64,000 nucleotides of DNA from Alphaproteobacteria bacterium. Its GTDB lineage: Bacteria; Pseudomonadota; Alphaproteobacteria; UBA7985. Below the pieces are notes generated by a model. It was not told the DNA's origin, ran no database searches, and was given only the letters and a program-made list of their open reading frames with translations. Below, piece after piece: positions 56,407-60,375 of this stretch (positions within the stretch are counted from its first letter, which is position 1; the number at the start of each line of letters is the position of its first letter). A program made the position numbers and the translations under genes. Location of the stretch: positions 2,335,572 through 2,399,571 of the forward strand of contig OZ245893.1 of assembly GCA_965229645.1 (NCBI GenBank), read 5' to 3'.

Positions 56407-56773
56407 GGCCAGCGGCAACTGAGGATGACTCTTATGTTCGCTGGTATAAGGGCTGCGACTGCGGTCCCCCAAAGCGGGCTCCAAGCCTGAAGGGCGCAGG
56501 GAACGCCCGTAATCCAAACGCGCGGCCCCGAGAATCGCGGACACGCGCCTCGGGGTATAAGCCAAGGCCCCGTCCAGCGGTCGGGCTGAGCGAGCTTAGC
56601 GAGCGAGTAGAGACCGCAACTAAAAGGTCGGGCTGAGCGAGCTTAGCGAGCGAGTAGAGACCGCAACTAAAAGGTCGGGCTGAGCGAGCTTAGCGAGCGA
56701 GGTGAGACCGCAACCCATAAAGCCGAAACGCGAAGCGTTTCTGCCGCGAGACACCAAACGGACATAAAAAAGG
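56407..56773 (+). mobile_element. MITE copy 11 (long form; module B expanded to 3 tandem 47-bp units)
   Basis: GGCCAGCGGCAACTGAGGATGACTCTTATGTTCGCTGGTATAAGG...; no clear 3' terminal repeat. Confidence 0.75.
56579..56719 (+). repeat. Tandem repeat 3 x 47 bp (GGTCGGGCTGAGCGAGCTTAGCGAGCGAGTAGAGACCGCAACTAAAA)
   Basis: Units at 56579, 56626, 56673; the third unit diverges at its 3' end. Confidence 0.85.
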
Positions 56774-56794
56774 CGTCGTTGATAACCGTTTGTG

Positions 56795-57874
56795 TTAGGT
56801 ATTCAACCAGTACCTGGTGCCTTTTCGTTCTCCTGTCTTACGAAGTGCGCCCTTATCCACCAAGTCATTAAGATCCCGAGTCGTGGTAGGTGTAGAGGCG
56901 CCAGTAATGGCCCTATAGTTCTTCGCGCTCAAGCCCCCGATGAAGCCTGCAGGTCCCGCGTCGAACATACGGATAAGCGCGCGCTCTTGCCTTTTGTTGA
57001 GTTGACCACGCAGACTATCGAGCATTTGTGTCTTGATGATGATGTGATCAATGAGTTGAAGGGAGTACTCTTGAGCCGAGAGAGCGGTTTCTGCAAACCA
57101 AACAAGCCAAGACTGGATATCCATACGTTTGTTATGGTGTTCCAGTTCACGATAGTAGGATTTTCGTTCTTTCTCAATCTGTCGGGACAAGGCAAGAAGG
57201 CTTGGTTGACCAAGCGCCCGCGATATGCAATGTTCAGAGATAGCACGCGCGATACGGCCATTTCCATCCTCAAAGGGGTGAATGGAAACAAAGTACAGGT
57301 GCGCGATCCCCGACAAAGTGAGAATTGGCAATCGAGCATTTTCGAGCCAACTCAGGAAGGTGTCCATTTCTTCTGGAACCTGAATTGAGGGAGGAGCCTC
57401 AAAGTGGATCTGTGGCTTGTCGATGGGACCAGATACCACTTGCATAGCTTCCTCATGCGTTCGATACCCACCAATAACATCCATATTTCGTTGTGTACGG
57501 CAGACCATGTCATGCCAAGCAAAGAGGTCTTGGTGTGTGAGGGGCTGATCAAACCCTTTGAACACGCTGACCATGAGTTCAGCAATTCCCTGCTCCGCAG
57601 CGCCGGATTTTTTCAGGGGGGTAAGGCCGAATTCTCGACGTATTGAGGACTGGACAGAAGTGCGGTTCAAAAACTCACCCTCAATTTGCGAGGTTTTCAT
57701 CGCCTCGTCGCTCAGAAGGTCAACTTTCAGCGCGTCTTGGTCTCGCGGATTAAGATGTTGCCATGCGCCGAGCAGGCGCCCAGCACCAAGAAGGAAGCGT
57801 TGCTCCAGCTCACTAAGGGCCTTGCTGTCGTAACGCCAATGTCGCCAATCGGGCTGTTGCCAATTCCAGGTCAT
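56795..57874 (-). CDS. fic: Fic-family protein (class II, internal inhibitory motif), C-terminal winged-helix region
   Basis: Active-site HPFEDGNGRIAR (HxFx[DE]GNGRxxR); N-terminal TSQIEG matches the (S/T)xxxE(G/N) inhibitory motif. GC is about 52-55%. Confidence 0.85.
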   Translation of the reverse strand: MTWNWQQPDWRHWRYDSKALSELEQRFLLGAGRLLGAWQHLNPRDQDALKVDLLSDEAMKTSQIEGEFLNRTSVQSSIRREFGLTPLKKSGAAEQGIAELMVSVFKGFDQPLTHQDLFAWHDMVCRTQRNMDVIGGYRTHEEAMQVVSGPIDKPQIHFEAPPSIQVPEEMDTFLSWLENARLPILTLSGIAHLYFVSIHPFEDGNGRIARAISEHCISRALGQPSLLALSRQIEKERKSYYRELEHHNKRMDIQSWLVWFAETALSAQEYSLQLIDHIIIKTQMLDSLRGQLNKRQERALIRMFDAGPAGFIGGLSAKNYRAITGASTPTTTRDLNDLVDKGALRKTGERKGTRYWLNT

Positions 57875-57947
57875 GAGGAATAAGGGTGAGATTTATTCCT
57901 CACAAAATACCCATATTGTGAGGAATATCAAGGATATTTATTCCTCA
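57874..57947. promoter_or_regulatory. Two tandem palindromic operators TGAGGAATA-N11/12-TATTCCTCA overlapping/upstream of the fic start
   Basis: 9-mers at 57874-82, 57894-902, 57918-26, 57939-47. The first overlaps the fic initiation codon. Confidence 0.5.
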
Positions 57948-57978
57948 CTATCACTTTTGGCGACTGTGACCAAAAGCG

Positions 57979-58095
57979 TTGGGCTGAGCGAGCCTAGCGC
58001 GCAAGGTACGACCGCAACCCCCAAAACCCGAAACGCGAAGCGTTTCTGCCGCGAGACACAATGGCCAAAGAAGTGTCCACTGCTAGGGCCGTTTG
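57979..58095 (+). repeat. MITE fragment (module B plus degenerate 3' part), copy 12
   Basis: GGGCTGAGCGAGCCTAGCGCGCAAGGTACGACCGCAACCC...GAAACGCGAAGCGTTTCTGCCGCGAGACAC. Confidence 0.6.
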
Positions 58096-58375
58096 TTTGA
58101 CAACCAATCAGCCAATTCAATACAGCTGATTTCTTCCAATTTGATTAAGCAAAATTAGTTATACCCTGAGACCTCAGCATAATTCGATTTCAAATCTCAT
58201 AGCTACAATATATCGGGCCAATTAAAGCGAATAGATACTACATATTGCGGTCAGTTTTTGGGTCTTTGATTTGTGCTGAGGTCTCACCCTATATTGGGGC
58301 TCGGCTTTTCTCCTTAAGGCATGATTATTTTAGGGGGGCGCAACTAAGCAAGCGCGAATTCCCCTAGTTGAATTT

Positions 58376-59281
58376 TCAGATCTCTTTCAGATAGGCCTCT
58401 AACCGTGCTGTAAAGTCGAGCAGGTCCACCCTATTTTGCTCGATTTTACGAGACCACAGTGCAATGTCGCGACGGATTGAGGGGAACTCAGACTGGACAA
58501 TTTTTGCGGTGCCTAAGTCACCGAACAAACCGATTAGGTTTTTGGGAAGGGCCATGAGGGCATCTGTTGTCCGCAACAGATGCATCGGGATCATGAGGTC
58601 TCCTGAGATGGAGATATTTTGGATTTTGGGTTCTATTCCTAGAAACTGGAATATTTCTGTTTCGGTCCCGTGGATGCCCGCGCGTGCGCCTGCGATCACC
58701 CATCTAGCTTGTTCCAATTTATCCTTGGTAGCGATCACGCCGTCTTGTGCGAGTTCCGATTTTGCGCCCGCGACAATCACCAACTCATCGGGGAAAACTA
58801 TATGCTGTACCAGGCTTTCTTCGTGAAGCCGCAATTGGGCTGGGGCAAGCGCTATGTCCAGCTGATGATCGATGAGCTTATCGATCAGGGGGGCCGCTGA
58901 GGTGCATTGAATTCGCAGGGCGTAGGGCCAATTTTGTTCAAGAGAGGCCTTGATCAAATTGGGCATAAAACTTGCTGCGAGTAGGGGACCAACACCCACA
59001 CGGAGTTCTGATGTGAGACCTTCGCGCCATTGGCGAATTGCCTCATCTGCCGCTTCTGCCTCTGTTAGAACGGCGCGGCCGCGCTCTGCGAGGAGTTCCC
59101 CCACATCGGTCGCGACAACACCATGGCTTGTGCGCACGAGAACGGGGGCGCCGACCCGATCCTCAATGATCCGTATGTTTCTGCTAAGAGTTGGCTGAGT
59201 TACGTTAAGTCGTTGCGCGGCCGAGTTGAGCGAGCCCAGGTCGATAGCCAGGGCTAGGTGGGAGAGAAGGCGAGGGTCCAT
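58376..59281 (-). CDS. LysR-family transcriptional regulator
   Basis: HTH LNSAAQRLNVTQPTLSRNIRIIE; GC about 50%. Confidence 0.8.
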   Translation of the reverse strand: MDPRLLSHLALAIDLGSLNSAAQRLNVTQPTLSRNIRIIEDRVGAPVLVRTSHGVVATDVGELLAERGRAVLTEAEAADEAIRQWREGLTSELRVGVGPLLAASFMPNLIKASLEQNWPYALRIQCTSAAPLIDKLIDHQLDIALAPAQLRLHEESLVQHIVFPDELVIVAGAKSELAQDGVIATKDKLEQARWVIAGARAGIHGTETEIFQFLGIEPKIQNISISGDLMIPMHLLRTTDALMALPKNLIGLFGDLGTAKIVQSEFPSIRRDIALWSRKIEQNRVDLLDFTARLEAYLKEI

Positions 59282-59376
59282 GGATATACAAATATTTATA
59301 GCAAATGCAGAAATTCTGATTTTATTTTGAAGGCAGAATTTTGCAAGAGGGGGGTTTCTACAAATGGGAGTACAAC

Positions 59377-60375
59377 ATGAATTTCTTTAGAAGGGCCGCA
59401 CTTGTTGCTGCCGTTACCACCGCGTCCATCTCGGGCGCCTATGCTGAAACCCTGAAGGCGGAGGGCGGCTCTGCGGCGGGTCTGAGCGCGCTCATTCCCC
59501 AACTGTTGTCAAACTATGCTTCTGACAATCACGAAATCCGCGTGAACGTCGACCAAACGCTGACGCGCGCGGCGTTGAAAGTTGCGACAGGCGCAATTGA
59601 TTTGGCAAGCACACCCGCTGGCGCTTTTGCGAAAATGCAGGTGGGGAAAGGCCCTTACAAGGACCTTGGTCAGGAAGCCATAGATGCCTCTGCCAATATC
59701 CGCTCACTCTTTTCCTTTGCGGGTGGTCATGTCCATGTGATGGTTCGTGCTGACAGCGGGATTGAGAGCTGGGAAGATATTCGCGGCAAGCGTGTCTTTG
59801 TAGGCCCACCTGCGGGCTCTTTTTCTGGTCAAACCGCTGCCCTGATCCGCGCTGTAACAGGCATGGAGCCCAATGAAGACTACGAAGCGATCAAGCTCGC
59901 TTGGGGCGCGGCAAGTCAAGCTTTTGAGGATGGACGGTTCGATGTGTTCATGCGTTCGGGCACCATGGGCTCTGCTGCAGTTGATCAATACGGCGCGGCC
60001 AGTCAGTTCCGCCTGCTGGGTGTTCCCGAGGGGCTGATTGGCACTGCAGCTTGGAATACTTACCTCTCCACACCTGGCTACGCAGCAGATGTACTGCCCG
60101 CTGGCACTTACTCCAACCAATCCAACAACGACGAGGATCTGCTGGTCTCCGCCTACGTGATGTTCGTAAGTGTTCACCAAGACATGGAGGAGCAAACCGC
60201 CTACGATCTAACACGTGCCATGTTTGAGAACATTGACGATGCGCATTCTGTGAATGCTGGTTTGGCACCGCTAAGAGTCGATAACGCATTCGTCTCACTA
60301 GCAGCACCTTTGCATCCTGGTGCGATCCGCTACTACGAAGAGGTCGGCGTACCTGTTCCCGACCATCTTCGCTAG
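59377..60375 (+). CDS. TAXI-family TRAP transporter solute receptor
   Basis: Signal peptide MNFFRRAALVAAVTTASISGAYA; TAXI (Imp/TRAP solute-receptor) family fold. Confidence 0.8.
   Translation: MNFFRRAALVAAVTTASISGAYAETLKAEGGSAAGLSALIPQLLSNYASDNHEIRVNVDQTLTRAALKVATGAIDLASTPAGAFAKMQVGKGPYKDLGQEAIDASANIRSLFSFAGGHVHVMVRADSGIESWEDIRGKRVFVGPPAGSFSGQTAALIRAVTGMEPNEDYEAIKLAWGAASQAFEDGRFDVFMRSGTMGSAAVDQYGAASQFRLLGVPEGLIGTAAWNTYLSTPGYAADVLPAGTYSNQSNNDEDLLVSAYVMFVSVHQDMEEQTAYDLTRAMFENIDDAHSVNAGLAPLRVDNAFVSLAAPLHPGAIRYYEEVGVPVPDHLR

Follow-up and report, generated by a model that had tools for sequence, protein, structure and literature searches.

The window examined here, a stretch of 64,000 nucleotides (nt; 64 kb) from an Alphaproteobacteria bacterium (contig OZ245893.1), encodes on its minus strand a class II Fic protein with a C-terminal winged helix (fic, 56795-57874), and two near-identical palindromes lie directly upstream of this gene, the nearer one reaching its start codon. 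These palindromes are probably operators for the negative autoregulation of fic, recognised by the winged helix of the Fic protein itself, a reading that draws on the sequence of the locus and of its relatives. The sites and their conservation are real beyond doubt, and a residue at the tip of the wing varies together with one base of the half-sites.

Paired palindromes over the predicted fic promoter

Four exact copies of the 9-mer TGAGGAATA, at 57874-57882 (plus strand), 57894-57902 (minus), 57919-57927 (plus) and 57939-57947 (minus), build two palindromes of 29 bp each, at 57874-57902 and 57919-57947, within the sequence gtcaTGAGGAATAagggtgagattTATTCCTCAcaaaatacccatattgTGAGGAATAtcaaggatattTATTCCTCAct (57870-57950). 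A preliminary description of this DNA had already recognised the four copies as two palindromes, and they are indeed exact and far beyond chance in the window. No further exact copy of TGAGGAATA is present in the 64 kb, and single copies with one mismatch occur elsewhere at chance level (7 against 6.3 expected). Scans of the window for the 29-bp pattern with up to three mismatches, and for the family consensus TGAKNNATAR-N9-YTATNNMTCA with up to one, returned the two operator places only, with no match in any of 100 shuffled sequences in either case. Read as 9-mers, both palindromes have a spacer of 11 nt, so that the N11 first given for one of them holds and the N12 given for the other was a miscount; likewise, their centres had been put about 44 bp apart and the period is in fact 45 bp. 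Read as 10-mers, they take the form TGAGGAATAA-N9-TTATTCCTCA, the arms matching at 10 of 10 positions in the proximal palindrome and at 9 of 10 in the distal one, and the inner arms of the two are 16 bp apart (14 bp when extended to 11-mers).

On the sense strand of fic, the proximal operator O1 (57874-57902, minus strand) reads TGAGGAATAA-atctcaccc-TTATTCCTCA, a perfect 10-N9-10 palindrome, and the distal operator O2 (57919-57947, minus strand), 45 bp upstream of O1, reads TGAGGAATAA-atatccttg-ATATTCCTCA. The proximal palindrome had been said to overlap the fic initiation codon, which it does by one base: its sense strand ends in ...TTATTCCTCATG, and its last base, at 57874, is the A of the ATG. 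The O1 spacer could also pair with the GTGAG in the left arm, to which it is complementary, and give a small alternative stem.

A scan for sigma-70-type promoters returned one promoter-like site on the fic strand. The -35-like TTGATA (57926-57931, minus strand) spans the junction between the O2 spacer and the promoter-proximal arm of O2, and the -10-like TATTTT (57904-57909, minus strand) follows 16 nt after it and stops 1 nt short of the O1 left arm, an arrangement that would place the start of transcription near 57897, within O1. Operators that cover the -35 element, the transcription start and the ATG form the classic layout of a repressor. At fic, O2 lies over the -35 element and O1 over the points at which transcription is predicted to start and translation starts, which makes the layout one of repressor type; the two palindromes overlap the -35/-10 region of their gene, and the same layout is found family-wide. 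In the mechanism proposed here, Fic would dimerise, as CbFic2 does through helix alpha-1 of DUF4172; one dimer on O2 would cover the -35 region, and one dimer on O1 would cover the stretch from just after the -10 element across the predicted transcription start up to the ATG. The occupied operators would then exclude RNA polymerase, and the level of a potentially toxic AMP-transferase would be capped. Binding, its stoichiometry, repression and the transcription start are what we infer from this arrangement.

A near-identical upstream architecture recurs throughout the homologous loci. The comparison covered 80 genomic loci with Fic homologues of 46-55% identity, with counts given over 81 loci; Alpha-, Beta- and Gammaproteobacteria, Acidobacteriota, Verrucomicrobiota, Bacteroidota and Planctomycetota are represented, among others. 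The upstream 160 nt of every homologue were inspected, arms of 10 nt were scored with in-frame start codons as anchors, and 5,000 start codons drawn at random from the same loci served as controls. Neighbouring arms also make up an inner inverted repeat, which an earlier automatic palindrome picker had confused with the true palindromes, and the anchoring replaced it. A proximal palindrome matching at 7 or more of 10 arm positions and ending on the start codon was found in 74 of the 81 loci against 1.9% of controls, and its combination with a second palindrome 43-45 bp upstream in 59 of 81 against 0.2%. Of the 74 proximal sites, 68 have arms separated by 9 nt, and 56 of the 59 two-site loci show a period of 44-45 bp. 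The resulting half-site consensus is TGAKnnATAR, arranged as 10-N9-10, and the half-site of the window, TGAG-GA-ATAA, is an ordinary instance of it, with a dinucleotide at its centre that is unusual. Among named relatives, Rhodobacterales such as Thalassococcus sp. S3 are the closest. Relatives at 70-72% identity, that strain included, carry GAGGAATAA or GATGAATAA arms in the same layout.

The spacers of the two sites have different contents. TTG, as in a -35-like element, occurs in 21 of 48 distal spacers and in 1 of 48 proximal ones, and a Shine-Dalgarno-like 4-mer in 26 of 48 proximal spacers and in 1 of 48 distal ones, with a YAnnnT hexamer at the O1 junction in 35 of the 48 loci. Judged from these motif counts, distal and proximal spacers are functionally split, a layout that the promoter scan of the window fits.

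The Fic protein and the covariation of its wing with the operator

The fic product, annotated from its open reading frame (ORF) and translation together with Pfam, phmmer and an AlphaFold model, has 359 amino acids and matches the Pfam families DUF4172 (E 9e-28) and Fic (E 3e-17). Its active-site motif, of the form HxFx(D/E)GNGRxxR, is HPFEDGNGRIAR and starts at H199; the class II inhibitory motif TSQIEG occupies residues 61-66, within DUF4172, and aligns to the TSAIEG of Coxiella burnetii CbFic2. The latter protein provides the nearest solved structure (8CIL; phmmer E 4e-66 over residues 3-348), to which the model, with a predicted local distance difference test score (pLDDT) of 93, has a full-length template modelling (TM) score of 0.86. 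The canonical active site, the internal class II motif and the winged-helix-like C-terminal region noted in the preliminary description are thus all borne out by the translation and the model. The winged helix comprises helices at 294-305, 317-324 and 328-340 and wing strands at 344-346 and 355-357; K351 and G352, at the tip of the wing in the modelled loop between these strands, are encoded at 56816-56821 (minus strand). With all sequence and fold features present, the protein belongs to the CbFic2-type DUF4172-Fic-winged helix-turn-helix (wHTH) family. From the literature on 8CIL and from the dyad symmetry of the sites, we infer that it would form a homodimer via helix alpha-1 of DUF4172. 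It had also been expected that such a protein would have no separate antitoxin, and this agrees with the locus comparison: no conserved small ORF that could be a co-transcribed antitoxin gene was seen upstream of fic, and the neighbours are different in every locus.

The half-sites themselves carry information on the identity of the binder. Left and right arms of the proximal site agree more often than shuffled arms at position 4 (0.95 vs 0.64), position 5 (0.74 vs 0.49), position 6 (0.77 vs 0.45) and position 10 (0.74 vs 0.45), and pairings of proximal with distal half-sites show a comparable pattern. Within a locus, the four half-sites therefore vary in concert, which indicates that the binder differs from locus to locus. 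Such differences are matched in the Fic protein: all 46 loci with H or Y at wing residue 352 have G at half-site base 10, and 21 of the 22 with G, S or A have A or T there. Base 10 is the innermost base of the half-site, and the wing has residue 352 at its tip. Having K351-G352 and ATAA, the window follows this rule, and the relatives at 70-72% identity combine G/S/A-type wings with ATAA half-sites, whereas other Rhodobacterales with R-Y at these residues have ATAG.

The coincidence was placed on a neighbour-joining tree of Fic residues 1-299 (136 branches), with changes assigned by parsimony. Five changes of base 10 were reconstructed, all of them on branches on which the wing residue also changes (7 wing changes), and none of 100,000 random placements was as good. 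Mutual information between all protein columns and the half-site bases was confounded by phylogeny and could not be used alone; the only signal to survive inspection and the tree-based count was that of wing residues 351/352. Residues 327-331 and 336 of the recognition helix, which correlate with bases 5-6, follow clades and were not retained. The covariation between wing and base 10 is specific, if indirect, evidence that the wing of Fic would touch the operator, and together with the joint variation of the half-sites within a locus it points to Fic itself as the binder.

The genes beside fic offer no comparable partner. They differ in each related locus inspected and include insertion sequence (IS) transposases, resolvases, ParDE, CcdAB, ArdA, TniQ and malic enzyme; no flanking gene recurs among those examined, clustering of all flanking ORFs across the 80 genome loci not having been done, and neither the TAXI protein of the window nor its upstream CFA-like protein has a homologue in 90 other fic loci. 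The fic gene looks like horizontally moved cargo. From a level of about 0.64, G+C content drops to 0.45-0.52 over fic, lysR and the intergenic region between them (about 56600-59400). The 430-bp gap between fic and lysR also holds a 26-nt inverted repeat (58160-58185/58268-58293; arms 81% complementary, 82 nt between them), which has no Rfam or tRNA match and is overlapped by a promoter-like site on the plus strand (58266-58295) as well as by a terminator-like hairpin (58280-58301).

Comparison with characterised Fic proteins

Own-promoter repression by a protein of this kind has been described for CccR of Yersinia pseudotuberculosis (YPK_0951, PDB 7XUX), a class II Fic protein with a helix-turn-helix (HTH) at its C terminus, by means of which it acts on 10-bp inverted boxes near the -35/-10 region; mutation of the boxes or of the dimer interface relieves repression (PMC9755527). 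CccR and the window Fic share the class II type, with an N-terminal inhibitory helix in CccR, and the C-terminal HTH, and CccR agrees with the autorepression proposed here in that a dimer represses from palindromic boxes in its own promoter and that no separate antitoxin gene is involved. The two proteins are nevertheless distant, with 18% identity, a TM score of about 0.5 and no phmmer match at E <= 1e-3, and CccR is a type VI secretion system effector, whereas nothing suggests secretion of the window Fic. The CccR operator is reported to consist of one pair of 10-bp boxes 26 bp apart (46-nt footprint), a geometry absent from the window fic, where there are two 10-N9-10 sites with a period of 45 bp. 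In the CccR dimer the DNA-binding helices are 70.2 A apart (PMC9755527), and the half-site centres in the window, at 19-20 bp or about 65-68 A of B-DNA, come near this separation; the likeness is only suggestive, since the dimer of CccR differs from that of CbFic2. By analogy, the window fic is likely to work as CccR does, as a toxin-like Fic protein in which a repressor domain is built in and which binds dyads lying over the promoter of its gene. The primer PcccR-R (PMC9755527 supplement) contains TGAGATAATCT 6 nt before the cccR ATG, a sequence that resembles TGAKnnATAR and differs slightly from the printed CccR box ATGATAATCT; the CccR promoter was recovered in part, from primers. As far as this partial sequence goes, the CccR operator may be related to that of the family.

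CbFic2 (CBU_0822) is much closer to the window Fic, with the same succession of DUF4172, Fic and wHTH and 35% identity. Its HTH binds DNA, DNA-induced dimerisation switches the enzyme between AMPylation and deAMPylation, and the protein has been investigated as an effector that might target the host and act on histone H3 (PMC10628234). The locus of a 99%-identical CbFic2 protein (L088) has a different palindrome, a perfect GAAGCGATTA-N6-TAATCGCTTC at 2448-2473, 28 nt before the ATG, with a TATAAT that overlaps the right arm. At the locus of a 77% homologue of CbFic2 (L090, 1455-1502), ATGAAGCGATTA-N6-TAATCGCTTCAT abuts the ATG, with another arm 5 nt upstream and a period of about 33 bp, vs 45 bp in the window. 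On these sequences, GAAGCGATTA-N6-TAATCGCTTC is a candidate for the specific binding sequence of CbFic2.

For SoFic of Shewanella oneidensis (PDB 3EQX), it has been reported that the dimer binds the first 100 bp of DNA that precede its start codon (bioRxiv 10.64898/2026.07.09.737422). SoFic resembles the window Fic in being a class II protein with a wHTH, and it is as a dimer, not as a monomer, that it binds its own upstream DNA; it shares 17-18% identity and a TM score of about 0.6 with the window Fic, and its DNA binding is known for its own promoter with no operator sequence defined. A more general parallel is offered by type II toxin-antitoxin systems such as Phd/Doc, a relative with the Fido fold, in which a growth-inhibiting enzyme is autorepressed at palindromes over its own promoter and which often lie among mobile-element genes. 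Unlike these systems, the window Fic holds the DNA-binding module and the inhibitory helix in one polypeptide, and its promoter abuts the fic ATG.

Alternative explanations and implications

An autoregulatory operator had been put forward as one of two possible roles of the repeats, and it fits both the comparison of 81 loci and the published behaviour of CccR, SoFic and CbFic2. Several observations weigh against autorepression by Fic. The O1 spacer of the clade to which the window belongs (ATCTCACCC, 57883-57891) has no Shine-Dalgarno-like motif, AAGGAG-like proximal spacers being found in 35 of 68 other loci; the distal sites are weaker than the proximal ones in many loci, reaching at least 8 of 10 matches in 51 of 81; and at positions 5-6 a locus often has different bases in its distal and proximal sites, which means that specificity at these half-site positions is loose. 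The covariation statistics rest on a neighbour-joining tree and parsimony derived from the same protein and on majority calls of the half-sites. In addition, CbFic2 was tested with random DNA only, which it bound with nanomolar affinity, and its authors left the specific site open (PMC10628234).

It is also conceivable, though unlikely, that Fic binds these sites and that their main role is that of an allosteric DNA ligand switching between AMPylation and deAMPylation, or of a distal site for activation. The switching of CbFic2 by DNA-induced dimerisation, the conservation of the sites and the frequent position of fic among mobile-element genes are in keeping with such a role, but the sites overlap the -35 element, the predicted start and the ATG in the manner typical of a repressor, and CccR, the sole case tested, is a repressor whose regulatory and toxic activities have been reported to be independent. 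The allosteric reading is in any case not exclusive of autorepression.

The palindromes could alternatively act as RNA, with the proximal one forming a hairpin in the 5' untranslated region that would mask the start codon or make the mRNA more stable, an explanation we regard as very unlikely. If fully transcribed, O1 folds at -12.2 kcal/mol (z-score -3.5) and pairs up to the A of the AUG, a Shine-Dalgarno-like motif lies within the would-be loop in many loci, and mismatches of the proximal arms lean towards sense-strand G.T (22 vs 9 A.C). A transcript from the predicted start near 57897, however, retains a stem of just -1.5 kcal/mol, no better than shuffled sequences, and O2, which is equally palindromic, lies upstream of the -10-like element and holds the -35-like one, and so would not be transcribed from that promoter. 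The mismatches of the distal arms lean the opposite way (30 A.C vs 11 G.T), and neither the invariant TGA...ATA bases of the arms nor the covariation with the protein wing is expected of a plain hairpin. No match to Rfam was obtained at E <= 1, no known RNA family or tRNA was found at or near the operator sites, and the single terminator-like call in the element corresponds to an alternative stem that is specific to the window and has a poor T tract. An RNA-level side effect on translation may exist besides the operator role.

The second role proposed in the preliminary description, binding by the neighbouring LysR-type regulator (58376-59281), stands here for any other regulator that might occupy the sites and is highly improbable. 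LysR proteins bind dyads with T-N11-A cores, usually from a gene divergent from its target; lysR is adjacent to fic in the window, and at the related locus L086, too, a LysR gene is found close to fic. The palindromes, however, travel with fic across phyla, with operators in about 90% of loci, while tblastn recovered a homologue of the window LysR in 1 of 90 fic loci (28% identity), downstream of fic and convergent with it, and on this comparison LysR was discarded as the binder. The lysR gene of the window is, moreover, co-directional with fic and divergent from the TAXI-TRAP transporter gene, a separate dyad, ATTCTG-N15-CAGAAT (59313-59339), lies in the lysR/TAXI-TRAP intergenic region and is a more plausible LysR target than the fic palindromes, and half-site variation follows the wing residue of Fic itself.

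The idea that the repeats are left over from a dispersed repeat family, or are the end of a mobile element or a terminator hairpin, deserves hardly any credence: the exact 29-bp pattern does occur in 22 metagenome contigs, never upstream of a close fic homologue and in some cases as phage-like intergenic hairpins or flanked by A/T runs, and the fic region is lower in G+C than its surroundings, but exact, mismatch and consensus scans gave no other copy in the window, the palindromes keep the same distance from the ATG across phyla while their half-sites have diverged, and the metagenome matches fall into a handful of sequence groups, each recurring across related contigs. These matches, mostly phage-like intergenic or terminator-like hairpins, plausibly reflect chance together with hairpin enrichment for 20 specified AT-rich bases in so large a collection, and they do not speak against the conservation of position within the family; the scan for the exact palindrome yielded no close fic relatives and was of no help in defining a regulon.

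Two types of element among the metagenome contigs can be described separately. On L100 (4193-4256), and likewise on L101, L102, L108 and L111, the arrangement is TTTATTCCTCAC-N14-GTGAGGAATAA-N9-TTATTCCTCA, with the same inner N14 spacing as in the window and the 18-mer TTTTGTGAGGAATAAATC common to both. This element starts directly after the stop codon of a different Fic and wHTH gene on the minus strand (L100 4254-5309; product 22% identical to the window Fic), with no fic ORF following, and may represent either an operator remnant that has been displaced or a site subject to cross-regulation. Phage-like contigs (L091, L094, L096, L097, L099, L107, L109 and L112) carry an exact TGAGGAATAA-N9-TTATTCCTCA in an intergenic gap, adjoined by a second hairpin, AGTTACGTTGCAGCGTAACT; ThyX-like and sigma-factor-like genes are present in L099, there is no Fic gene, and the palindrome is probably an unrelated hairpin.

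Proteins that combine Fic with a winged helix number about 1,800 entries in InterPro (bioRxiv 10.64898/2026.07.09.737422), and among these widespread enzymes an operator has been mapped for CccR alone. The authors of the CbFic2 study pointed to the special interest that a specific binding sequence would have, as DNA binding switches the activity of the enzyme (PMC10628234). The analysis presented here provides an operator model for the family, TGAKnnATAR-N9-YTATnnMTCA in two copies 44-45 bp apart and ending on the ATG; a candidate recognition rule, in which H or Y in the wing goes with G and G, S or A with A or T; and a candidate site for the CbFic2 clade. Searches of the available literature, on DUF4172 and on Fic, HTH, palindrome and own promoter, returned no description of a family-wide operator or of the rule relating the wing to base 10, which constitute the added value of this work. 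For genome annotation, the operator motif marks the true start codons and the promoters of the fic genes of the family.

A further step, improbable but compatible with the biochemistry of CbFic2 and with the mobile-element neighbourhoods, would be that operator DNA is the specific ligand that dimerises Fic and holds it in a non-toxic state, either deAMPylating or inhibited, so that the promoter would serve as the "antitoxin" of a one-protein module. If so, loss or dilution of the operator-bearing element, or an amount of Fic exceeding the two operators, would leave free monomers to AMPylate a cellular target; fic alone would then make up an addiction or dosage-sensing system carried by mobile DNA, and the pairing of the wing with base 10 would be the recognition code that matches each Fic protein to its own DNA.

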